A DNA stretch of 64,000 nucleotides from Escherichia phage teqskov: the sequence record NC_054934.1; one strand, written 5' to 3'. Position 1 is the first letter of the stretch. Every line of letters begins with the position of its first letter. A program made the position numbers and the translations under genes. Positions 430 through 32,945 of the stretch are shown piece after piece. A model generated the notes under the pieces. That model made no database searches and was not told the DNA's origin. It was given only the letters and a program-made list of their open reading frames with translations.

Positions 430-3400
430 TTATTCAACCCATTCAAATTTAACAGTTTTATTCACTGGGTCAGGAACAATGCGAACATTACCAATTCGCA
501 AGAAATCACGAATAGTAAGATTCCCCATTGTAGCATTATCAGATGGTAAAGCACCGATATCAGATGGTTGAGGAGGGTTACCTCCGTCAAATACCTGAAC
601 AAAACTTGACCAAGAGTTTTTGGTTTTCTGCCATGTACGTGTCCAACGAGTGGTACGCGCTTCTGGTGTCGTTGGATAAGTAATCCAATCTTGGTAAAGC
701 GAATCAAGTGTGTTACCAAACTGAGTCAGTGTACCAGGAGATTTAACTTCTTCGCCACGTTCTAAGTATGGAAGCCCAGTCACTTCATTAGTTTTTTCAA
801 CCATTTTAAAATAACCCGGGAACTGGTTATAAGTAGCTGAATCGTTAATATCAATTGACCAGAATCCTACCGTATCAGATGTTGGCGCACGGGTATATAA
901 ATCAGATGTTTTAGTACCCTGAGAACGAATTCTCGAGTTAACAGTCAAACCACCTGAATTTATAGTAGCACCTTTAGCAATGATTAAGCTTTCACCGATC
1001 GTTACTTGACCAGATGCATTGTTAATAGCTAAAGGACGTAATCCATTAAATCCGCCAGTCTGATCACCCGATGCAGTAAGCATAAAATAGGTGTTAGCAG
1101 CATCATTGCGAATAAAGAACCCATAATCACCGTTTATTGCTCTAAAAGCATTTGCAGACTTGCTGATGAATTCACCATTGGCTGTAACTGAACTACCAAA
1201 TGTTGCAACGCCATTCGCATTTAAAGAACCCGAAGCATTAATGTTTATTGGCATTACAGTACCATTGATACTAAACGTTATATTCCCAGCTTTATTACGT
1301 TGAGAATAAAAGTGATTAGACGTTTCATCACCAACTTCAAATACAGTAGAACGTGTTGTATCTGAACCGCCGCCAAACTGATTTCCCCAAACTCTGATAG
1401 TCATCGTCTGTGCTGGGTTAGTTCCAGTTTGAGGTCCTTTCTCAAAAATCAGACGAGTTGCTGTTCCAGTATTAGAAATAGTTAATGTACTATTTGCCGA
1501 AACTGAACCACCAAACGTAGCAGTACTAGATGATACAAGAGGGGCACTCAGATTCGTTTGTTGGGTTAAGGTTAGTGAACCATTAACCGTCTGTGCAATA
1601 TCCCTACGAATGAACTGAGATGAATCTAGACCATCCAATAAATTACTATCTGCAGCTTTTGCTTTTAACGGTAAATAATTTGCTAATACACGGTTTAATT
1701 CATATGGTGATATTGCATAGCTATTTTTCTCATACAGTTCTAAATCTTGGGTAGAACCGACTGTATCATTACCAACGAACGTAATTGAACCAGATGAAGT
1801 TTTAACAAAACCTCTTACCGCAGTAGTAGCTGCCCAGGTAGGTTCACTCTGCACAATCCATTTTAAATTTTTTGGAGATACAGCAGTATTTGCTGATGCT
1901 CCAGTCACAGTTTCAGACTGAGTTGCAACTTTAATAACACCTTCCTGTGATTCGGTAGATTTAGTACCTAAAAGCTTTTTAGGAGTTATTAAAACATTAT
2001 CTAATGTTCCTGCAGCAGCTTCAACTTGTGTAGCTACACGAAGTGTACCACGTTGTGTCTCATTTGCTTCAAGAATATTAAGGGTATAATGGTCCCAGAG
2101 AGTTCCTGATTCAACTAATCCAGATAGAGCAACAACAGAAGTACGATCAGTACTATTAAATCTGGTTTTAATTTTTAATGGTGTAGAGATACGAGTATCG
2201 TCGACGCCTGCGTCGAATTCAACTTGTGTGGCAATTTCAGCTATACCACTTAAACTTTCAGTTGCTCTACGGTCATTTAAAGTTTTAGGAGTGACTGCAC
2301 GAGTATAATCAGTTCCTGTATTAACTTCACTTTGCGTAGCAATTTCAATTAAACCAATTCTTCCATCAGTTGATGTCTTTTTATGTAACGTTTCTGGAGT
2401 TACAACTGCATTTGCCCATCCTTCTTGACTCTGTCCAGCAATTACTTCACTTTCAACTGCTAAAATTACTGCACCTTGCTGTGTTGGAGTAGCTTTATAC
2501 TGATCCAAGGCTTTAGGTGAAACAACTAAGTTATTAGTGTTTTTATTATAAACATTTGTACCATTTAATTCACGGCTAGAAGCTGGAGTAGCACCTGCAG
2601 TAGATACAAAAGTTACAATACCAGATAATGACTCAGAACCCTGGCGGGCTTGAAGCTTTTTAGGAGTAATGATGGTTGTATCATCTGTTCCTGTGTTTGT
2701 TTCTTGCTGCGTAGCAATTTCAGCGACACCCCTACGAGTTTCTGTAGCAGTTCTTTCATTCAACTTTTTAGGAGTGATGATAAGGTCATCTGCAAAAGAG
2801 AATGTGGTATCCTGGTTTACTTGCGCAGTTGTTGCTATTCTTGCAATACCTCTACGAGTTTCTGTAGCAGTACGATTAGCTAACGTTTCTGGAGTAATTG
2901 CCAATTCTTTTTGTGGAGAATTTTCTAGATCAGCATTAGCTTGAGCCTGTGTAGCTAAAGCAATTACGCCTAATCTTGCTCTAGTAGAATTATTTAAAGA
3001 GTCTACTCTTTCTACAGTTGGAACGTTTTGCTGTACAACCCAATATTTTCCATCGGAATCTTCGATATAAGCAAGCTGTAAAACTGGAACATAATTGGTT
3101 TCGCCATTAAAAACTAATTCTTGAACAGTCACCCATTTAGTTTCAGGTGGGTATTCTGAACGTTTTGGAAATTGCAGCAATTGAACTGAAGAAGCAATTT
3201 TATCTTCACCGGCAGCTTTGATTTTAACTGTTTGTCCTTTTCTCATATAATTCATGGAAATCTTAACAGTATCACCGATAGAAATATCAGTTGGAAGCTG
3301 AAGCTCAATTGTTTGAGTTGTTCCGTTATTCGCACCAAATACCATGACTTCTTCATTTGGACGAATATTAGAATTAGTTGTTATAATACGTAAACGTGCT

Positions 3401-4299
3401 TTACTATCCCCGTCAAACAATCTCCACAATTTCTCATTATCATCAAACATCAAGAAACCGTCAATCGATGTACGGCCTTCAATGGAATGAGTTCCAACTT
3501 CTTGTACTGAAGTCGTTTCATCGTATGTAGTAACAATTGTATGATAAAGTGGATTCAGTTTATCTAAATCGACAAAATTAATAATATCGCCATGATTAGC
3601 AAATCTTGGAAGTTTAACATTAATTGGTGCAGCAGAAGTAAATCTACGTACGATAAAATCATTAGATTGCGCCTGATAGAGACTTGCTGGTGTTACAATT
3701 ACCGCTTCTCTACTATAATCAGCTACATACATTTGCCACAGACGATTACTAAAAATTAAAACTAGCTGTGACTTTGGATGAGTCATTAGTACTGAACGTA
3801 CTTGTTCACCTCTAAAGTTTACAATACTTTGCACTGGAGCTACAATTAAAACTTGGTTAACTCCGGGTTTTCCTCCAATATCTTGGAGAACGATAGTATC
3901 ACCATCAATTGGAGTAGATGGTAAAGTAAATGTGATGTCATTTCCAGCTGCAGTATTAACCGAAATTGCTTCGCCAGATTTTAATTGATATGAACCAGAT
4001 GAAACCGTAATCCAGTTAGCATCTGTACGTAATGCTCTCCAGCGTCCGCTATTAAAAGCTCCTGCCGGTTTTGGAATATCATTTATAGCAGCCCAAAAGC
4101 GGTTATCATAAATGATTACAAAATCTTTTAAATATCCACGAGTTGGGTCATATTGCTGAACTGTGTTTTCTTGAATTAAGTAATCAACGTTAACACCGTC
4201 AGTTCCTACGGTACGATCAGCTAAAGCTACGTTGATTATTTTATCGCCACCTGCGTCCAGACCATCTTCTGCTCTGAACTTTCTTTTAATCTCGGCCAT
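430..4299 (-). CDS. 34: Long tail fiber proximal subunit gp34
   Basis: 1289-aa ORF, same length as T4 gp34; fibrous protein with repeated ITPKKL / TATETRRG-like motifs; sits between rnh and gene 35 as in T4. Confidence 0.95.
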   Translation of the reverse strand: MAEIKRKFRAEDGLDAGGDKIINVALADRTVGTDGVNVDYLIQENTVQQYDPTRGYLKDFVIIYDNRFWAAINDIPKPAGAFNSGRWRALRTDANWITVSSGSYQLKSGEAISVNTAAGNDITFTLPSTPIDGDTIVLQDIGGKPGVNQVLIVAPVQSIVNFRGEQVRSVLMTHPKSQLVLIFSNRLWQMYVADYSREAVIVTPASLYQAQSNDFIVRRFTSAAPINVKLPRFANHGDIINFVDLDKLNPLYHTIVTTYDETTSVQEVGTHSIEGRTSIDGFLMFDDNEKLWRLFDGDSKARLRIITTNSNIRPNEEVMVFGANNGTTQTIELQLPTDISIGDTVKISMNYMRKGQTVKIKAAGEDKIASSVQLLQFPKRSEYPPETKWVTVQELVFNGETNYVPVLQLAYIEDSDGKYWVVQQNVPTVERVDSLNNSTRARLGVIALATQAQANADLENSPQKELAITPETLANRTATETRRGIARIATTAQVNQDTTFSFADDLIITPKKLNERTATETRRGVAEIATQQETNTGTDDTTIITPKKLQARQGSESLSGIVTFVSTAGATPASSRELNGTNVYNKNTNNLVVSPKALDQYKATPTQQGAVILAVESEVIAGQSQEGWANAVVTPETLHKKTSTDGRIGLIEIATQSEVNTGTDYTRAVTPKTLNDRRATESLSGIAEIATQVEFDAGVDDTRISTPLKIKTRFNSTDRTSVVALSGLVESGTLWDHYTLNILEANETQRGTLRVATQVEAAAGTLDNVLITPKKLLGTKSTESQEGVIKVATQSETVTGASANTAVSPKNLKWIVQSEPTWAATTAVRGFVKTSSGSITFVGNDTVGSTQDLELYEKNSYAISPYELNRVLANYLPLKAKAADSNLLDGLDSSQFIRRDIAQTVNGSLTLTQQTNLSAPLVSSSTATFGGSVSANSTLTISNTGTATRLIFEKGPQTGTNPAQTMTIRVWGNQFGGGSDTTRSTVFEVGDETSNHFYSQRNKAGNITFSINGTVMPININASGSLNANGVATFGSSVTANGEFISKSANAFRAINGDYGFFIRNDAANTYFMLTASGDQTGGFNGLRPLAINNASGQVTIGESLIIAKGATINSGGLTVNSRIRSQGTKTSDLYTRAPTSDTVGFWSIDINDSATYNQFPGYFKMVEKTNEVTGLPYLERGEEVKSPGTLTQFGNTLDSLYQDWITYPTTPEARTTRWTRTWQKTKNSWSSFVQVFDGGNPPQPSDIGALPSDNATMGNLTIRDFLRIGNVRIVPDPVNKTVKFEWVE

Positions 4300-4333
4300 T
4301 CTCCCGGGCTCCTATTGTGTTTTCAATAATAAG

Positions 4334-4341
4334 TATTTATA
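4334..4341 (-). promoter_or_regulatory. Late promoter (TATAAATA) for gene 34
   Basis: Plus-strand TATTTATA = minus-strand TATAAATA, about 35 nt upstream of the gene 34 ATG; T4 late promoter consensus. Confidence 0.5.
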
Positions 4342-4344
4342 CTT

Positions 4345-4374
4345 GTTTACTTTAAGATTTGGATGGTATATAAT
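4345..4374 (+). promoter_or_regulatory. T4-type early promoter upstream of rnh
   Basis: GTTTAC, 18-nt spacer, TGGTATATAAT extended -10; about 30 nt upstream of the rnh start. Confidence 0.5.
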
Positions 4375-4403
4375 AGAAATCTCACTAATTGAACGAGGTT
4401 CAT

Positions 4404-5321
4404 ATGGATTTAGAAATGATGCTGGATGAAGATTACAAAGAAGGAATTTGCTTTATTGACTTTAGTCAAATTGCGCTTTCAACTGCTTTGGTAAACTTCC
4501 CAGATAAAGAAAAAATTAATTTATCAATGGTTCGTCATTTGATATTGAACTCAATTAAGTTTAATGTCAAAAAAGCAAAAGCTCTTGGATACACTAAAAT
4601 TGTATTGTGTATTGATAACGCGAAATCTGGATACTGGCGTCGTGATTTCGCTTATTATTATAAGAAAAACCGTGGAAAAGCACGAGAAGAATCTACTTGG
4701 GACTGGGAAGGTTATTTTGAATCCAGCCATAAAGTTATAGATGAATTGAAAGCTTATATGCCATACATTGTTATGGATATTGATAAGTATGAAGCGGATG
4801 ACCACATTGCTGTTCTTGTTAAAAAGTTCTCTTTAGAAGGACATAAGATTTTAATCATTTCGTCGGATGGTGACTTTACTCAACTTCACAAATATCCAAA
4901 TGTTAAGCAATGGTCACCGATGCATAAGAAATGGGTTAAAATTAAAAGCGGTTCTGCTGAAATTGACTGTATGACTAAAATCCTTAAAGGCGATAAAAAG
5001 GATAACGTTGCTTCAGTTAAAGTACGATCTGACTTTTGGTTTACCAAAGTTGAAGGTGAACGAACTCCTTCAATGAAAACTTCAATCGTTGAAGCTATTG
5101 CTAATGACCGTGAGCAAGCTAAGGTGCTTCTCACAGAATCTGAATATAATCGTTATAAAGAAAATCTAGTTCTAATTGATTTTGATTATATTCCTGATAA
5201 TATTGCTTCAAACATTGTGAATTACTATAATTCATATAAATTACCACCGCGTGGCAAAATTTATTCATATTTTGTAAAAGCGGGTCTTTCTAAATTAACT
5301 AATAGCATTAATGAATTTTGA
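4404..5321 (+). CDS. rnh: RNase H (5-prime to 3-prime exonuclease / flap endonuclease)
   Basis: Translation MDLEMMLDEDYKEGICFIDFSQIALSTALVNFPDKEK... matches T4 RNase H; ATG at 4404 with GAGG SD preferred over the track TTG start at 4389. Confidence 0.95.
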   Translation: MDLEMMLDEDYKEGICFIDFSQIALSTALVNFPDKEKINLSMVRHLILNSIKFNVKKAKALGYTKIVLCIDNAKSGYWRRDFAYYYKKNRGKAREESTWDWEGYFESSHKVIDELKAYMPYIVMDIDKYEADDHIAVLVKKFSLEGHKILIISSDGDFTQLHKYPNVKQWSPMHKKWVKIKSGSAEIDCMTKILKGDKKDNVASVKVRSDFWFTKVEGERTPSMKTSIVEAIANDREQAKVLLTESEYNRYKENLVLIDFDYIPDNIASNIVNYYNSYKLPPRGKIYSYFVKAGLSKLTNSINEF

Positions 5322-26714: not shown

Positions 26715-28174
26715 TTCTTAAAATTCTGAATGAAATAGCATCTATTGGATCAACTAAGCAGAAGCAAGCAATTCTTGAAAAGAATAAAGATAATGAATTG
26801 CTTAAACGAGTATATCGTCTGACTTATTCTCGTGGGTTACAGTATTATATCAAGAAATGGCCTAAACCTGGTATTGCTACCCAGAGTTTTGGAATGCTGA
26901 CCATTACCGATATGCTTGATTTCATTGAATTCACGTTAGCTACTCGGAAATTGACTGGAAATGCTGCAATTGAGGAATTAACTGGATATATCACTGATGG
27001 TAAAAAGGATGATGTTGAAGTTTTGCGTCGAGTGATGATGCGAGACCTTGAATGCGGTGCTTCAGTATCTATTGCAAACAAAGTTTGGCCAGGTTTAATT
27101 CCTGAACAACCTCAAATGCTGGCAAGTTCTTATGATGAAAAGGGCATTAGTAAGAATATCAAGTTTCCAGCCTTTGCGCAGTTAAAAGCAGATGGAGCCC
27201 GGTGTTTTGCTGAAGTCCGAGGCGATGAATTAGATGATGTTCGTCTTTTATCACGAGCTGGTAATGAATATCTAGGATTAGATCTTCTTAAGGAAGAGTT
27301 AATCAAAATGACTGCTGAAGCCCGCCAGATTCATCCAGAAGGTGTGTTAATTGATGGCGAATTGGTATACCATGAGCAAGTTAAAAAGGAACCAGAAGGC
27401 CTAGATTTTCTTTTTGATGCTTATCCTGAAATTAGTAAAGCTAAAGAATTCGCCGAAGTAGCGGAATCTCGTACTACTTCTAATGGAATCGCCAATAAAT
27501 CCTTAAAAGGAACCATTTCTGAAAAAGAAGCTCAATGCATGAAGTTTCAGGTTTGGGATTATGTCCCGTTGGTAGAAATATACGGTCTTCCGGCGTTTCG
27601 TTTAAAATATGATGTACGTTTTTCTAAACTAGAACAAATGACATCAGGATATGATAAAGTAATTTTAATTGAAAACCAGGTAGTAAATAACCTAGATGAA
27701 GCTAAGGTAATTTATAAAAAGTATATTGACCAAGGTCTTGAAGGTATTATTCTCAAAAATATCGATGGATTATGGGAAAATGCTCGTTCAAAAAATCTCT
27801 ATAAATTTAAAGAAGTAATTGATGTTGATTTAAAAATTGTAGGAATTTATCCTCACCGTAAAGACCCTACTAAAGCAGGTGGATTTATTCTTGAATCAGA
27901 GTGTGGAAAAATTAAAGTAAATGCTGGTTCAGGCTTAAAAGATAAAGCCGGTGTAAAATCGCATGAACTTGACCGTACTCGCATTATGGAAAACCAAAAT
28001 TATTATATTGGAAAAATTCTAGAGTGCGAATGCAACGGTTGGTTAAAATCTGATGGCCGCACTGATTACGTTAAATTATTTCTTCCAATTGCGATTCGTT
28101 TACGCGAAGATAAAACTAAAGCTAACACATTTGAAGATGTATTCGGCGATTTTCATGAGGTAACTGGTCTATGA
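26711..28174 (+). CDS. 30: ATP-dependent DNA ligase gp30
   Basis: 487 aa, same length as T4 ligase; adenylation motif KADGAR present (AQLKADGARCFAEV). Confidence 0.95.
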   Translation: MILKILNEIASIGSTKQKQAILEKNKDNELLKRVYRLTYSRGLQYYIKKWPKPGIATQSFGMLTITDMLDFIEFTLATRKLTGNAAIEELTGYITDGKKDDVEVLRRVMMRDLECGASVSIANKVWPGLIPEQPQMLASSYDEKGISKNIKFPAFAQLKADGARCFAEVRGDELDDVRLLSRAGNEYLGLDLLKEELIKMTAEARQIHPEGVLIDGELVYHEQVKKEPEGLDFLFDAYPEISKAKEFAEVAESRTTSNGIANKSLKGTISEKEAQCMKFQVWDYVPLVEIYGLPAFRLKYDVRFSKLEQMTSGYDKVILIENQVVNNLDEAKVIYKKYIDQGLEGIILKNIDGLWENARSKNLYKFKEVIDVDLKIVGIYPHRKDPTKAGGFILESECGKIKVNAGSGLKDKAGVKSHELDRTRIMENQNYYIGKILECECNGWLKSDGRTDYVKLFLPIAIRLREDKTKANTFEDVFGDFHEVTGL

Positions 28175-28359
28175 AAGCTTACTTAGAAACAATTGTCGTG
28201 GCTCAAAAAGAAGGTGGAGATGTTTCTACTTCTGTATCACAAATCATGATTGAATTTATAGATGCATATGCTTATAATAAATTCACAGAAACATTTGATG
28301 CCTATGAAAAAGGTCCAAAGTTTGAAATATATCGTACTCTCTTACCAATAGATTATTAA
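28171..28359 (+). CDS. Hypothetical small acidic protein, 62 aa
   Basis: ORF overlapping the ligase stop (ATGA). Confidence 0.5.
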   Translation: MKAYLETIVVAQKEGGDVSTSVSQIMIEFIDAYAYNKFTETFDAYEKGPKFEIYRTLLPIDY

Positions 28360-28360
28360 A

Positions 28361-28380
28361 GGCCTTCGGGCCTTTAATTT
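28361..28380 (+). terminator. UUCG-tetraloop hairpin / weak terminator
   Basis: GGCC-TTCG-GGCC flanked by AAA/TTT and followed by TTTAATTTT. Confidence 0.5.
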
Positions 28381-28388
28381 TATAAATA
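28381..28388 (+). promoter_or_regulatory. Late promoter (TATAAATA) upstream of alt
   Basis: TATAAATA about 24 nt upstream of the alt ATG; fits late expression of a packaged protein. Confidence 0.5.
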
Positions 28389-28411
28389 GAATAAACATTA
28401 GAGAGGATATG

Positions 28412-30505
28412 ATGGAACTCATTACAGAATTATTTGACGAAGATACTACTCTTCCGATTACAAACTTAAATCCAAAGAAGAAAATACCACAAATTTTTTC
28501 AGTTCATGTTGATGACGCAATTGAACAACCAGGCTTTCGTTTATGCACGTATACATCTGGAGGTGATACTAATCGCGATTTAAAAATGGGCGATAAAATG
28601 ATGCATATCGTTCCTTTTACATTAACTGCAAAGGGGTCAATTGCTAAATTAAAGGGTCTTGGACCGAGTCCTATTAATTACATCAATTCAGTATTTACCG
28701 TAGCAATGCAAACAATGAAACAGTATAAAATTGATGCATGTATGCTACGCATTCTTAAATCTAAAACAGCCGGTCAATCTCGACAAATTCAACTTATTGC
28801 AGATAGACTCATCCGTAGTCGTTCAGGCGGTAGATACGTCCTTCTTAAGGAACTCTGGGATTACGATAAAAAGTATGCATATATTCTTATACATCGCAAA
28901 AATGTATCACTAGAAGACATTCCAGGAGTTCCGGAAATTAGTACAGAGCTCTTTACTAAAGTTGAATCGAAGGTCGGTGATGTTTATATCAATAAAGATA
29001 CTGGGGCTCAAGTAACTAAAAATGAGGCAATTGCAGCATCAATTGCACAAGAAAATGATAAGCGTTCTGACCAAGCTGTTATTACTAAAGTTAAAATTTC
29101 CCGTAGAGCAATTGCACAAAGTCAGTCATTGGAATCTTCTAGATTTGAAAGTGAATTATTCCAGAAGTATGAATCTACGGCAGCTAATTTTAATAAACCA
29201 GCTACTGCACCTTTAATTCCCGAAGCAGAAGAAATGAAAATTGGAATTAATTCATTAGCTTCTAAAACAAAGGCAGCAAAAATTATTGCTGAAGGAACGG
29301 CAGATGAACTTCATTATGATTATAAATTCTTTCCGCTGAGTCGGGTTGGTGAAGTTTCTGAAAAAATTAAAGATACAATTCTACATGCTATTAAAAATGA
29401 GCCAACTACCTCAATAAAATGTTTAGAAAAATACGCAGCAGCAGTTAATTCACTTTTTGATGAATACAAAGATAGTTGGCTTGCTAAACACAATAAAAAT
29501 CGCAAAGGTCAACCTGACGAAGTTTGGGAAGAATTGACTAAAAATGCTTGGAATGCGGCAAAAACTAAATTTCTTAAACGAATGATATACAGTTTCTCTG
29601 GCGTAGGAGCTGGTCCTATGATTGATATTACAATCGCTCGTGATGGTTCTAAATATACTCCATCACAAAAGAGAGGTATTAGAGAATACTGTGGATCAGG
29701 GTATACTGACATCAATAATCTTCTTTTGGGTCGTTATGATCCAGAACGTTATGAAGTAATGAGTGAAAAAGAAATTGAAGCTGCTATAACTAATTTAGAT
29801 TCTGCTTTTGAAAATGGTGATCGTATACCAGAAGGCATTACAGTTTATCGTGCTCAGAGTATGACTGCTCCTATATACGAAGCTTTAGTTAAAAATAAAG
29901 TGTTCTACTTCAGAAATTTTGTATCTACTTCTTTAACTCCTATCATTTTTGGACGTTTTGGAATCACACATGCTGGTATTGGTCTTTTAGAACCAGAAGC
30001 TCGCAATGAATTAACAGTTGATAAAAATGAAGAAGGAATAACTATTAATCCAAACGAAATAAGAGCGTATAAAGAAAATCCTGAATACGTTAAAGTTCAA
30101 ATAGGATGGGCAATTGATGGAGCTCATAAAGTTAATGTTGTATATCCAGGAAGTCTCGGAATAGCAACAGAAGCTGAAGTTATTCTACCGCGTGGATTGA
30201 TGGTCAAAGTTAATAAAATAACTGATGCTTCTAATAATGACGGAACAACATCTAATAATACAAAACTCATTCAAGCTGAAGTTATGACCACGGAAGAGCT
30301 CACCGAATCGGTAATCTATGATGGAGACCATTTAATGGAAACTGGTGAATTGGTTGCAATGACAGGTGATATTGAAATAGAAGACAGAGTTGACTTTGCA
30401 TCATTTGTTTCATCAAACGTTAAACAGAAAGTAGAATCATCTCTTGGAATTATTGCGTCTTGCATAGATATTACAAACATGCCTTACAAGTTCGTTCAAG
30501 GATAA
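28412..30505 (+). CDS. alt: Alt NAD-protein ADP-ribosyltransferase (packaged, injected with DNA)
   Basis: MELITELFDEDTTLPITNLNPKKKIPQIF... about 697 aa; C-terminal ART motifs Arg (VYRAQ), FVSTSL and EAE; matches T4 Alt from memory. Confidence 0.9.
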   Translation: MELITELFDEDTTLPITNLNPKKKIPQIFSVHVDDAIEQPGFRLCTYTSGGDTNRDLKMGDKMMHIVPFTLTAKGSIAKLKGLGPSPINYINSVFTVAMQTMKQYKIDACMLRILKSKTAGQSRQIQLIADRLIRSRSGGRYVLLKELWDYDKKYAYILIHRKNVSLEDIPGVPEISTELFTKVESKVGDVYINKDTGAQVTKNEAIAASIAQENDKRSDQAVITKVKISRRAIAQSQSLESSRFESELFQKYESTAANFNKPATAPLIPEAEEMKIGINSLASKTKAAKIIAEGTADELHYDYKFFPLSRVGEVSEKIKDTILHAIKNEPTTSIKCLEKYAAAVNSLFDEYKDSWLAKHNKNRKGQPDEVWEELTKNAWNAAKTKFLKRMIYSFSGVGAGPMIDITIARDGSKYTPSQKRGIREYCGSGYTDINNLLLGRYDPERYEVMSEKEIEAAITNLDSAFENGDRIPEGITVYRAQSMTAPIYEALVKNKVFYFRNFVSTSLTPIIFGRFGITHAGIGLLEPEARNELTVDKNEEGITINPNEIRAYKENPEYVKVQIGWAIDGAHKVNVVYPGSLGIATEAEVILPRGLMVKVNKITDASNNDGTTSNNTKLIQAEVMTTEELTESVIYDGDHLMETGELVAMTGDIEIEDRVDFASFVSSNVKQKVESSLGIIASCIDITNMPYKFVQG

Positions 30506-30508
30506 ATC

Positions 30509-32566
30509 ATGGAACTTATTACAGAATTATTTGACGGCGCTTCGGCGCCGGTTGTTAACTTAAATCCTAAGCATAAAATACCACAAATTTTTGCTATTCA
30601 AGCCGGTGAAGAAAGCGTTCTTCCTGGATTTAGATTTTGTACATACACCTCTGGCGGTGATACGAATAAAAACGTTAAGCCAGGCGACAAAATGATGCAT
30701 ATCGTAATGATAGGTGTCAACGAGAAATTATCGTTAGTCAAGCTTAGAAACTTGGGTGGAAATCCAATTGGCGTCATTAATGCTGTTTTTGATACTGCTC
30801 TTCAAACAATGAAACAGTATAAAATCGACGCATGCCTATTCCGCGTACTAAAAAGTAAAACAAACGGCGCAGCTCGTCAAATGCAAGTTATTGCTGACCG
30901 TTTAGTACGTACTAAAGGAGCAGGTCGATATGTTCTTTTAAAGGAAATCTGGGACTATGATAAGAAATATGCATATATTATGGTTTACCGTAAAAATGCC
31001 AATTTAGAAGACATTCCAGGTGTACCTCCTATTTCAACTGAGTTATTCACAAAAGTTGAATCAAAGGTTGGTGATGTTTATGTAGACGTTAAAACAGGTA
31101 ATGCTGTTCCTAAAGCTGTCGCTGTTGCTGCTTCTATTGCTTTAGAAAATGATAAGCGCACGGATCAAGCTGTTATTCAGAAAACTAAAATTAGTCGTCG
31201 ATTAGCAGCACAAGCTCAATATTCTACTGTTGATGCTTCACTTCAGGGTGATAGCTTCGCTGCTAAGAAATATCAAGAGTTTGAATCTAAAGTTCCGGTA
31301 TATAAAGCAGAAGGTCCGATGAACTCTGGCGTTATTCAGATTGGTTCAAACTTTAGCAAAGGAGCTATCGGTGGTATGAGAAGTGCTTCTCGTTTTAAAT
31401 CTAACGATTATGAACTAGAAAGTTTCCGAAATCATATTGCATTGGCCCATGCACGTTTACGTGATCCATCTATCAAGTTGCAGAGCGATATAACATATCA
31501 AGGTTCTCAAGAATATTTAAAGAATAAAGAATTCTTTGATTATAAAACTGATAAAATTTTAAGCGATCTTGCTGACATTAATATTTCTAATAGCTTTGAT
31601 GTTATTAAGAAAATTATCAATGATTTAGTTAAAGGTTCTAAAGCTACACCAGATGAAAAGACAGCTATTATTCAATTTGTCATGAATGGCATTTATAAAT
31701 TGATTAATGAATCTGCCGCCCAGGCATATGAATACGCAAGCACTGAAGTAACTCCAAAAGGATTAACTCAGGCTGAGTCTGATGTAATTGAAGATTATTG
31801 TGCAGATTCATATGTTGAAATGAACTCGTTCCTTTTAGGTAAACCTGATTCTACCCGTGAAGAATATATGGAACGAGCTATTAAACACATCGAGACGTTG
31901 GATTCTGCATTTGCTAAAGGTTCAGTTCTTCCTCCAGGAACTACTCTTTATCGTGGGCAAGAAGTTACCTTTAAAACTTTGCGTCATAACATTGAAAATA
32001 AAATGTTCTATTTCAAGAACTTCGTATCCACATCGCTTAAACCAAATATCTTCGGTGAGCATGGTAAAAACTATATGGCTCTAGATGATTCCGGCGCAGT
32101 ATTTTCTGGTGAAGGAGAAGGTTCCGTTGATGCAGAAGATTTGATGCATATGGGTAGTCATTCTACATATGCTAATGAAGATGCTGAAACTAGCATGGGT
32201 ATGGTAATTAAAGGAGCTGAGCGAATCAAAGTTATCGTTCCAGGTCATTTATCAGGATTTCCATCAGAAGCTGAAGTTATTCTACCACGTGGAATTTTAC
32301 TGAAGATTAATAAAGTGAGCACGTACATGATGAAAGAAACTGCTTATAATAAGTATCTAATCGAAGGCACAATCGTTCCTCCTTCTGAGCAATTAGAAGA
32401 ATCAGTATATGATGGCGATCATTTGATGGAAACTGGTGAAGTTCGTCCAATGGCTGGATTTAATCAATTCCTTGTAGAAGAATCAAAAGAAGAGGAAAAC
32501 GAAGTTTCTCAAATCTTGGCTTCTTTGGTTAACATCAACGGAATGTCTAAAAAGTTCAAGATGTAG
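30509..32566 (+). CDS. Alt-family ADP-ribosyltransferase paralog, 685 aa
   Basis: Same N-terminus MELITELFD...; N-terminal about 230 aa roughly two-thirds identical to Alt by eye, central region divergent; C-terminal motifs LYRGQ, FVSTSL, SEAEVILPRG retained; 3-nt gap after alt. Confidence 0.85.
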   Translation: MELITELFDGASAPVVNLNPKHKIPQIFAIQAGEESVLPGFRFCTYTSGGDTNKNVKPGDKMMHIVMIGVNEKLSLVKLRNLGGNPIGVINAVFDTALQTMKQYKIDACLFRVLKSKTNGAARQMQVIADRLVRTKGAGRYVLLKEIWDYDKKYAYIMVYRKNANLEDIPGVPPISTELFTKVESKVGDVYVDVKTGNAVPKAVAVAASIALENDKRTDQAVIQKTKISRRLAAQAQYSTVDASLQGDSFAAKKYQEFESKVPVYKAEGPMNSGVIQIGSNFSKGAIGGMRSASRFKSNDYELESFRNHIALAHARLRDPSIKLQSDITYQGSQEYLKNKEFFDYKTDKILSDLADINISNSFDVIKKIINDLVKGSKATPDEKTAIIQFVMNGIYKLINESAAQAYEYASTEVTPKGLTQAESDVIEDYCADSYVEMNSFLLGKPDSTREEYMERAIKHIETLDSAFAKGSVLPPGTTLYRGQEVTFKTLRHNIENKMFYFKNFVSTSLKPNIFGEHGKNYMALDDSGAVFSGEGEGSVDAEDLMHMGSHSTYANEDAETSMGMVIKGAERIKVIVPGHLSGFPSEAEVILPRGILLKINKVSTYMMKETAYNKYLIEGTIVPPSEQLEESVYDGDHLMETGEVRPMAGFNQFLVEESKEEENEVSQILASLVNINGMSKKFKM

Positions 32567-32595
32567 TTTACAAGTCCCTCGTGTTGTGTTATAGT
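32566..32595 (+). promoter_or_regulatory. T4-type early promoter (copy B of the repeated promoter-leader cassette)
   Basis: GTTTAC, 18-nt spacer, TATAGT; 52 of 54 nt identical to copy A at 16775. Confidence 0.5.
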
Positions 32596-32626: not shown

Positions 32627-32917
32627 ATGAAATCTTCTTTACGCTTTTTAGGTCAAGAACTTGTAGTTGAAGGCGTTATTCCTGCTGATAACGCTTTTAA
32701 TGAAGCAGTTTATGATGAATTTATCAAAATTTTTGGAACAGATAAAAAGTTCGGAATTTTTCCTTCTGAAAATTTTTCAAAGCCACAGCAGACTGAAAGC
32801 ATTTTCCAAGGTGTAGTAACAGGTAAATTTGAGTCAGAAGCTCCGGTAAAAATTGAAGTTTATATTGAAGACAGTTTAGTTGCTTCAGTTGCTGCTTTTA
32901 TTTCATTCCGTAAATAA
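32627..32917 (+). CDS. Hypothetical protein, 96 aa
   Basis: ORF with GAGGA SD 7 nt upstream; last + strand gene before the convergent baseplate operon. Confidence 0.6.
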   Translation: MKSSLRFLGQELVVEGVIPADNAFNEAVYDEFIKIFGTDKKFGIFPSENFSKPQQTESIFQGVVTGKFESEAPVKIEVYIEDSLVASVAAFISFRK

Positions 32918-32923
32918 AAATAT

Positions 32924-32942
32924 GGGGACCTTTCGGTCCCCA
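32924..32942. terminator. Bidirectional hairpin terminator between convergent genes
   Basis: GGGGACC-TTTCG-GGTCCCC; U-rich run on the minus-strand side (after gene 54). Confidence 0.6.
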
Positions 32943-32945
32943 TTG

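Follow-up and report, generated by a model that had tools for sequence, protein, structure and literature searches.

Two Alt-family ADP-ribosyltransferase paralogs in the T6-type alt locus of Escherichia phage teqskov: conserved ends, exchangeable catalytic cassettes and probably different substrates

Among phage enzymes that are injected together with the DNA, T4 Alt is the standard example. It carries out NAD+-dependent ADP-ribosylation of host proteins, among them the alpha subunit of RNA polymerase at Arg265, and knowledge of it comes mostly from T4 itself. Here we describe the corresponding locus of Escherichia phage teqskov (NC_054934.1) in a window of 64,000 nucleotides (nt), the whole stretch of DNA that was analysed, to whose positions the coordinates below refer unless another record is named. 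An earlier note, made from the letters of the window, had proposed that two large open reading frames (ORFs) separated by 3 nt are tandem Alt-family ADP-ribosyltransferase (ART) genes that share one late promoter. Both ORFs are present, encoding 697 and 685 amino acids (aa) with the three nucleotides ATC (30506-30508) between them, and both proteins begin with MELITELFD, as the note had it. An additional in-frame ATG at 28409 would give the first protein one extra methionine (698 aa). The region is the T6-type alt locus of Tequatrovirus; we refer to the genes as alt (ORF1) and alt2 (ORF2).

28412-30505, + strand: ORF1, alt, T6-type allele; ADP-ribosyltransferase of 697 aa from MELITE (ORF list)
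28412-29131, + strand: ORF1 N-terminal domain, aa 1-240; 85-100% nt identity to T4 alt
29132-30265, + strand: ORF1 variable cassette, aa 241-618 (helical centre plus ART); 35-78% nt identity to T4 alt
29849-29851, + strand: ORF1 catalytic Arg480 (alignments)
29924-29932, + strand: ORF1 S505-T506-S507 motif (family alignment)
30170-30178, + strand: ORF1 E587-A-E589, the second Glu being the counterpart of the T4 residue published as E577A
30509-32566, + strand: ORF2, alt2, second Alt-family ADP-ribosyltransferase, 685 aa (ORF list)
30509-31228, + strand: ORF2 N-terminal alpha/beta domain, aa 1-240
31229-31753, + strand: ORF2 all-helical central region, about aa 241-415; 17-21% identity to Alt
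31754-32383, + strand: ORF2 ART domain, about aa 416-625 (Pfam match, Foldseek matches)
31952-31954, + strand: ORF2 R482
32027-32035, + strand: ORF2 S507-T508-S509
32267-32275, + strand: ORF2 E587-A-E589, with Phe584 three residues ahead of the first Glu

The tandem arrangement is already known and annotated in hundreds of records, and is an ordinary feature of this phage group. Duplications of alt were listed in T4-like phages by Nolan et al. in 2006 (PMC1524935), and megablast of the region returned 544 phage records, nearly all Tequatrovirus, many of which annotate two Alt-like ADP-ribosyltransferases. In records of the BASEL collection the two are named "ADP-ribosyltransferase Alt" and "ADP-ribosyltransferase Alt2". 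T4 has its genes here in the order 30, alt.1, alt, alt.-1, alt.-2, alt.-3 and the convergent gene 54, and T6 (MH550421) in the order 30, alt.1, alt (697 aa), a gene called "alt.-2" (685 aa), alt.-3 and 54. The window has the gene order, gene sizes and 3-nt spacing of T6, and the pair, flanked by gene 30/alt.1 and alt.-3/gene 54 and preceded by a late promoter, occupies the position typical of the Alt family. T6 Alt is 96% identical to ORF1, with 27 substitutions that cluster in aa 277-460, and the T6 "alt.-2" protein is 98.5% identical to ORF2; both ORFs differ from their T6 counterparts by point changes only. The centre of ORF2 was found in 400 phage records at 90-99% nt identity, and the T6-type and T4-type alt cassettes in 352 and 175 records, respectively. 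A literature search found no functional study of Alt2.

Both proteins belong to the Alt family by several measures. They match the Pfam family PF03496 (ADPrib_exo_Tox; ORF1 1.1e-36, ORF2 3.5e-20, both above the gathering score of 23.4 bits), with no other match in our local Pfam copy, and the Alt-like phrog_802 (ORF1 2e-272, ORF2 6e-256). Precomputed tables assign PF26846 (Tevenvirinae_ADPRT) to close homologs, though the local copy gave no match to it for either ORF. Their N-terminal domains are 98% (ORF1) and 67% (ORF2) identical to that of T4 Alt. The catalytic motifs that the earlier note had placed in both proteins, the arginine of VYRAQ or LYRGQ, the S-T-S and the E-A-E, are located where it had put them: R480, S505-T506-S507 and E587-A-E589 in ORF1, and R482, S507-T508-S509 and E587-A-E589 in ORF2. 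In an alignment of 59 representatives of the family, taken from clusters at 50% identity, R, S-T-S and E-x-E are near-invariant: of the 55-56 sequences with a residue at these positions, at least 54 have the conserved one. The arginine and E-x-E of ORF1 align with TVYR and E-Y-E of CdtA, and the motifs of both ORFs align with those of T4 Alt. In T4 Alt, the mutation published as E577A replaces the second Glu of E-x-E and leaves the enzyme inactive (PMC11404850); ORF1 and ORF2 each have the equivalent Glu. In the 682-aa T4 Alt (L001, 3455-5503) the E-x-E falls at E574/E576, so that the published number must count from an in-frame ATG further upstream (MMELITE); for ITE-6 and LTE-619, the processing sites discussed below, the MELITE numbering applies.

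In an AlphaFold 2 model of ORF2, aa 12-235 form an alpha/beta domain, aa 240-470 are all helical, aa 480-625 form an ART core and the tail is disordered; the last helices of the 240-470 stretch fall within the Pfam ART match. Searched with Foldseek, the modelled ART domain matches Vis, Certhrax, C3 and CDTa, with E values of 1e-7 to 1e-5. A sequence search of ORF2 against PDB chains gave no match at E <= 0.01, while a profile of the 59 sequences matched ART domains only, down to 8e-13. The R-S-ExE catalytic fold is thus common to ORF1, ORF2, C3bot, Vis, Certhrax, CDTa, iota Ia and VIP2. CDTa, iota Ia and VIP2 carry an additional N-terminal ART-like adaptor domain ahead of the catalytic ART, which ORF1 and ORF2 lack; profile alignments that extended over the adaptor domain of CDTa and iota Ia (profile positions 212-466) are apparently stretched, as the region is all helical in the model. 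Both genes are probably functional paralogs encoding arginine-type mono-ADP-ribosyltransferases of the Alt/C3-like R-S-ExE clade, with the catalytic activity of Alt2 predicted from its motifs.

The pairwise alignment that had been suggested as a check gave 41% identity overall (BLASTP, E 2e-158), and the catalytic residues survive it when it is examined with care. Identity is 67% over aa 1-238, 17% over aa 239-410, 34% in the ART domain and 44% at the C-terminus. The picture of a similar N-terminus and a divergent centre holds to this extent, but the divergence is not confined to the centre, since the ART domains differ strongly as well. A comparable pattern separates ORF1 from T4 Alt (gpAlt, NP_049811). 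At the protein level these two are 98% identical in the N-domain (aa 1-238) and 97% in the C-terminal 72 aa, they share both gp21 motifs as well as the upstream hairpin and late promoter, and both genes lie between alt.1 and alt.-3/gene 54, but they carry different cassettes at aa 241-618 (32% identity in the centre, 65% in the ART). In a sliding comparison of the two genes, nt identity runs at 85-100% over aa 1-240, 35-78% over aa 241-618 and 93-98% from aa 619 onward. From these three zones it follows that the variable cassette consists of the helical centre plus the whole ART domain rather than of the centre alone. The earlier note had suggested the divergent centre as a target-recognition module; the centre does diverge, but both between the paralogs and between alleles of alt the unit that varies is the whole catalytic unit. 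ORF2 resembles T4 Alt in architecture and motifs at 67% identity in the N-domain and 36% in the ART, and has no intact counterpart in T4.

One difference within the ART domain may bear on substrate choice. Three positions ahead of the first catalytic Glu stands a residue that aligns with the aromatic one in the CdtA motif G-Y-A-G-E-Y-E and that we take, as in C3-like and iota-type toxins, to lie in turn 1 of the substrate-contacting ARTT loop. ORF2 has Phe there and the six other Alt2-clade and other-genus relatives that were aligned (P0009, P0011-P0014 and P0017) have Tyr or Phe, but ORF1 has Ile and T4 Alt has Pro; family-wide, 43 of 55 sequences have Tyr, Phe or His. Since the catalytic parts of Alt and Alt2 differ strongly, including at this residue, different substrate sets are most likely, and by analogy with the toxins the ARTT-loop difference is consistent with distinct host targets.

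The ends of the proteins are where the two paralogs are most alike, and they carry putative processing signals. T4 Alt is a prohead-core protein present in about 40 copies and injected with the DNA (PMC9026906). It is cut by gp21 at ITE-6 and LTE-619, with removal of 6 N-terminal and 63 C-terminal residues (PMC5694885). Corresponding motifs occur at both ends of both ORFs:

28421-28429, + strand: ORF1 I4-T5-E6, gp21 motif, counterpart of T4 ITE-6
30299-30307, + strand: ORF1 L630-T631-E632, counterpart of T4 Alt LTE-619
30308-30502, + strand: ORF1 predicted C-terminal propeptide, 65 residues
30518-30526, + strand: ORF2 I4-T5-E6, predicted N-terminal gp21 site
32393-32401, + strand: ORF2 L629-E630-E631, predicted C-terminal gp21 site
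32402-32563, + strand: ORF2 predicted C-terminal propeptide, 54 residues including YDGDHLMETGE

At the level of motifs, both proteins would therefore be processed as T4 Alt is. The Glu of each site is kept among the representatives (E6 in 55 of 59, E631 in 57 of 59), with Leu or Ile two residues earlier in 50-51. Just past the C-terminal site, the segment SV(I)YDGDHLMETGE is among the best conserved both between the paralogs and among the other relatives aligned, and is a candidate targeting or tethering element. Because gp21 removes 6 and 63 residues in T4, the short propeptides are candidate targeting signals alongside the 240-aa N-domain. IPI, IPII and IPIII of T4, internal proteins that bear a capsid-targeting sequence, are likewise packaged in the prohead core, lose a propeptide to gp21, which cuts after a Glu, and are injected along with the DNA (PMC9026906); the Alt proteins differ from them in having a 6-aa N-terminal and a 54-65-aa C-terminal propeptide together with a large conserved N-domain.

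Signals for expression are arranged as if both genes belonged to one late unit:

28355-28378, + strand: terminator-like hairpin with U-rich tail; 10-bp stem, UUCG loop; RNA fold -13.5 kcal/mol, z -3.3
28381-28388, + strand: T4-type late promoter TATAAATA, the sole exact copy able to serve both genes; conserved upstream of T4 alt
28401-28406, + strand: Shine-Dalgarno sequence GAGAGG for ORF1 (ATG at 28409 or 28412), from the sequence
30498-30502, + strand: Shine-Dalgarno sequence AAGGA for ORF2, within the last codons of ORF1
32567-32595, + strand: early-type sigma-70 promoter-like site for alt.-3; TTTACA, 17 nt, TATAGT, with TG

As had been claimed, a single late promoter precedes the pair: the only exact + strand TATAAATA between 22768 and 39207 is the one upstream of ORF1. 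No exact copy lies upstream of ORF2, where the nearest site, TATAAAGA at 30068, has one mismatch. The hairpin separates the upstream early and middle genes from the alt genes, and T4 has the same hairpin sequence and the same layout upstream of alt (late promoter, GAGAGG, ATGATG). Earlier work describes a terminator that is conserved upstream of alt (PMC1524935), and time-resolved omics shows late expression of T4 alt (PMC9697503). The early-type promoter-like site that directly follows the ORF2 stop codon marks the end of this putative unit. The simplest reading of these signals is one late alt-alt2 transcript. Transcription of both genes would then start late from the single TATAAATA at 28381, the hairpin would insulate them from early and middle transcripts, and ORF2, with its Shine-Dalgarno sequence inside ORF1, is possibly translationally coupled to ORF1.

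Selection on the two genes was estimated as the ratio of nonsynonymous to synonymous substitution (dN/dS) by the Nei-Gojobori method, with 8 genomes for alt and 9 for alt2 (the window, phage 132, T6 and four to five others, plus U115 for alt2) at dS of about 0.17-0.20:

alt (ORF1): overall 0.064; N-domain 0.022; centre 0.105; ART 0.030
alt2 (ORF2): overall 0.043; N-domain 0.020; centre 0.073; ART 0.045

The frames of alt and alt2 are intact in all genomes compared, and ORF2 keeps its 685 aa without stop codons in nine of nine. Both genes are under strong purifying selection, and ORF2 is not decaying in the lineages compared. The notion that ORF2 is a duplicate in decay, on its way to becoming a pseudogene, as the T4 annotation of alt.-1 and alt.-2 could lead one to think, is rejected by these ratios and is almost certainly wrong. 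It can point to T4 and to the 91 records in all that have only a frameshifted, deleted remnant, but it has to face a gene of full length, with an overall dN/dS of 0.043 and a centre found in 400 records.

The remnant in T4 is itself informative, and it bears on whether the second ORF might be a well-characterised T4 gene with an unrelated function, which it is not. Where the window has an intact ORF2, T4 has only alt.-1 (NP_049810) and alt.-2 (NP_049809), which correspond, with hardly a difference, to residues 1 to about 117 of ORF2. The DNA of T4 runs parallel to that of the window, at about 96% identity, as far as 30856 and once more beginning with 32547, and both ends fall on a direct repeat:

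30848-30856, + strand: left copy of the 9-bp direct repeat CTAAAAAGT, left deletion end
32547-32555, + strand: right copy of the 9-bp direct repeat CTAAAAAGT, right deletion end

T4 retains one copy of CTAAAAAGT, and the deletion amounts to 1,699 bp. The alt.-2 tail, ...SLQVPRVVL, is the translation of DNA just 3' of the ORF2 stop codon, because the deletion shifts the frame. T4 alt.-1 and alt.-2 are thus the remnant of Alt2 after a frameshift and a 1,699-bp deletion between CTAAAAAGT repeats, and the deletion junction is contiguous in 91 records. The T4 record describes them as an "old duplication of the first part of gene alt", which is to be read in reverse, and the "apparent insertion in alt.-2; also similar to alt" noted in the T6 record likewise has its direction reversed, T4 being the deleted form.

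Relatives of the window show that the locus is a mosaic. Cassettes combine freely, as in U115, which has a T4-type alt together with alt2, and metagenomic proteins add two more cassettes in the first slot (P0016 and P0018) and a second one in the second slot (P0009). Four proteins, P0003, P0004, P0005 and P0007, join a centre, ART and tail of ORF2 type (97-99% identical to ORF2) to N-domains that are 75, 84, 92 and 97% identical, respectively, to that of ORF1. A reading of these as products of gene conversion between the paralogs is ruled out for P0005 and P0007, the two whose contigs were examined. In both contigs one alt gene, and no second, follows alt.1 directly; alt.-3 comes directly after the hybrid in the P0005 contig, and the P0007 contig stops just past the gene. 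Single hybrid genes speak for unequal crossing-over rather than gene conversion. Because these two contigs are short-read assemblies, the isolate genomes of ECML-134 and Yersinia phage PST were examined; both have the single hybrid state, as does, judged by a matching hit, SCS4, a near-identical relative of ECML-134. The hybrid genes lie as follows in the stretches L011-L014:

L013 (ECML-134), 2552-4612: hybrid alt gene
L014 (PST), 2552-4612: hybrid alt gene
L012, 4001-6055: hybrid alt gene
L011, 4001-6061: hybrid alt gene

The crossover lies near aa 150 in ECML-134, near aa 100 in PST and near aa 180 and 215 in two metagenomic contigs, and these four different points indicate recurrent unequal crossing-over in the N-domain. 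At least four states of the locus therefore exist: T6-type alt with alt2, as in the window; T4-type alt with alt2; T4-type alt with a remnant, as in T4; and a single hybrid gene. The evolutionary scheme that these states suggest is one in which phages would exchange payload cassettes by recombination in the conserved flanks, unequal crossing-over within the N-domain would collapse the pair to one hybrid gene, and T4 lost alt2 through a deletion at microhomology.

In the shared N-terminus the earlier note had seen a plausible packaging or injection module. By sequence the N-domain is rare: a phmmer search with it against 1.84 billion representatives gave only 69 clusters, in which it is always N-terminal. 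In terms of sequence, neither the 59 representatives scanned nor the seven weakest or shortest matches showed a different cargo. The exceptions to an ART partner include two short proteins, P0157 (229 aa) and P0185 (221 aa). P0184 (541 aa) has its first roughly 200 residues and a middle region in common with P0187 (786 aa) and ends before the ART part, which P0187 carries. The metagenomic protein P0183 (485 aa) has the N-domain, almost no helical centre and no Pfam ART match; its ART-like motifs are degenerate, with LYK for LYR and GENSEIVLPRG for E-x-E-VILPRG, and it may be an inactivated family member. In a structure search of BFVD, the N-domain found Alt homologs first and then large uncharacterised proteins at E values of 1e-8 to 1e-4; as a rough calibration, the recognised but very divergent Alt of phiAS5 (14% identity) is just slightly ahead of these, at 6e-10. 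These lower matches come from Ackermannviridae, Vibrio and Agrobacterium phages, and some are named zeta toxin, deaminase or ParB/Srx. One of them was checked: DA66_0048 of Dickeya phage RC-2014 (L010, 34893-36488, - strand; 531 aa), a hypothetical protein of phrog_3867 (unknown function) that matches neither Pfam nor an ART. Over residues 12-195 it aligns to positions 2-200 of the N-domain at an hhalign probability of 77% (E 2e-5), and its BFVD Foldseek E value is 7e-8. The N-domain fold may thus be a reusable head-delivery module with other cargo, for example in Ackermannviridae, which we regard as a lead.

Taken as a whole, the observations are probably best explained by a T6-type locus that encodes two functional paralogs, each built from a delivery chassis and a payload, with different sets of substrates. 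The chassis shared by the two would consist of an N-propeptide ending in ITE-6, the N-domain of about 240 aa, which is specific to Tevenvirinae, and a C-propeptide that follows L-x-E; the payload would be the helical centre with the ART domain. Alt and Alt2 would both be made late, delivered by the capsid and, in the next host cell, modify host proteins with NAD+. We consider it probable that they are two such capsid-delivered enzymes that act on different substrates, with the packaging, processing and targets of Alt2 predicted from its resemblance to Alt. A wider proposal, to which we attach rather less than even confidence, is that the chassis takes exchangeable payloads, that Tequatroviruses inject Alt and Alt2 against distinct targets, and that Alt2 is a widespread enzyme of host takeover or counter-defence. 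Extended further, it suggests that the N-domain fold serves as a portable packaging module for cargo other than ART domains in Ackermannviridae, Vibrio and jumbo phages.

Several points weigh against this interpretation. The ARTT difference concerns one position and predicts a change of specificity solely by analogy with C3 and iota toxins. A packaging role for the N-domain is conjectural, and published processing points instead to the short propeptides; the domain is almost always attached to an ART (PF03496 in 55 of the 59 representatives) and so is not clearly a portable module. Intact alt2 is missing in about a quarter of related phages, so that it must be dispensable in some settings, and since Alt is non-essential in T4, the viability of hybrids and deletions says little about function. 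Finally, a literature search found no virion proteomics or biochemistry for Alt2.

The same observations can be read in other ways. Alt2 could be a redundant back-up or dosage copy that is packaged like Alt and hits what Alt hits (Arg265 of RNA polymerase alpha, MazF and others), in which case the pair would do no more than increase or safeguard the dose. The two proteins are indeed alike in family, catalytic motifs, processing motifs and promoter, and many phages make do with only one of them (T4 with Alt, PST and ECML-134 with an Alt2-type catalytic part). Such redundancy seems unlikely, given that the ART domains are 34% and the centres about 17% identical and that the ARTT position differs. 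Redundant copies usually decay or homogenise, whereas each paralog is separately conserved at a dN/dS of about 0.05 and recombination between them was seen only in the N-domain, the payloads staying distinct. Less probable still is an Alt2 that is made late and not injected, acting in the producing cell or serving purely as a structural component of the prohead core. One paper describes T4 Alt as both an enzyme and a component of the core (PMC11404850), and our literature search found no report of Alt2 packaging; a merely structural role would not require the catalytic residues or an ART domain held under purifying selection (0.045), and Alt2 has kept both gp21 motifs and the conserved C-terminal propeptide.

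A further alternative holds that the payload cassettes are mainly devices of counter-defence, with Alt and Alt2 neutralising different host toxins or immune proteins immediately on injection; swapping, alleles and losses of cassettes would then stem from an arms race with host defences and not from an adjustment of transcription. The model for it would be T4 Alt and MazF, reportedly the subject of work by Alawneh in 2016. The diversity of cassettes on a conserved chassis fits well, with at least four alleles in slot 1 (T4-type, T6-type, P0016 and P0018) and at least two in slot 2 (ORF2 and P0009), as does the variation among close relatives in presence, absence and hybrid state. A review that places fast-evolving phage ARTs in host-virus conflicts (PMC9503650) also lends it support. 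Within allele classes, though, selection is purifying and not diversifying, the maximum dN/dS being 0.105 in the ORF1 centre. This account is possible but doubtful as the main explanation; it concerns targets rather than molecular mechanism, and it overlaps with the reading of two delivered enzymes with different substrates.

If Alt2 is injected and has targets of its own, accounts of immediate-early host takeover by T-even phages are incomplete. T4 represents an atypical, reduced state of the alt locus, while about three quarters of its sequenced relatives, including T6, the BASEL phages and many therapy candidates, have a second intact paralog under selective constraint. The lack of a functional study of Alt2 is plausibly explained by the deletion of alt2 in T4, the model phage, and T6 or BASEL phages offer a ready system for it. 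The organisation into chassis and payload also suggests a natural design for packaging foreign enzymes in T4-type capsids. The present analysis adds a corrected origin for alt.-1 and alt.-2, the maintenance of Alt2 with its gp21 motifs, the mosaic structure of the locus, natural hybrids and the difference at the ARTT position.

The neighbouring genes and signals are as follows:

28171-28359, + strand: alt.1 homolog, upstream neighbour, 62 aa, in the same position as T4 alt.1
32627-32917, + strand: alt.-3 homolog, downstream neighbour, 96 aa; DUF5498
32922-32943, both strands: bidirectional terminator hairpin with a perfect 9-bp stem, between alt.-3 and the convergent gene 54

The start of the alt.1 homolog overlaps the end of the DNA ligase gene. 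Its product matches Pfam PF24647 (Phage_blade, "Phage blade protein") at 7.5e-29, and a literature search on the "blade protein" name found no paper explaining the name or a function. The alt.-3 homolog has the early-type promoter-like site as its own, directly 3' of the ORF2 stop codon. In T4, mutants with a C-terminal extension of Alt.-3 escape the CmdTAC defence, whose toxin is an ADP-ribosyltransferase (PMC11618068).

Two observations concern individual sequences. The T6-type alt cassette of the window (29126-30287) is an uncommon sub-variant, with 2 of 410 records above 95% nt identity and 314 at 90-95%; the closest is Escherichia phage 132, at 98.7% nt identity. The 32-kb GenBank record MG010123, named "Staphylococcus phage SAJK-IND", contains DNA 95-98% identical to the Tequatrovirus alt2/alt.-3 region and is probably mislabelled or contaminated.

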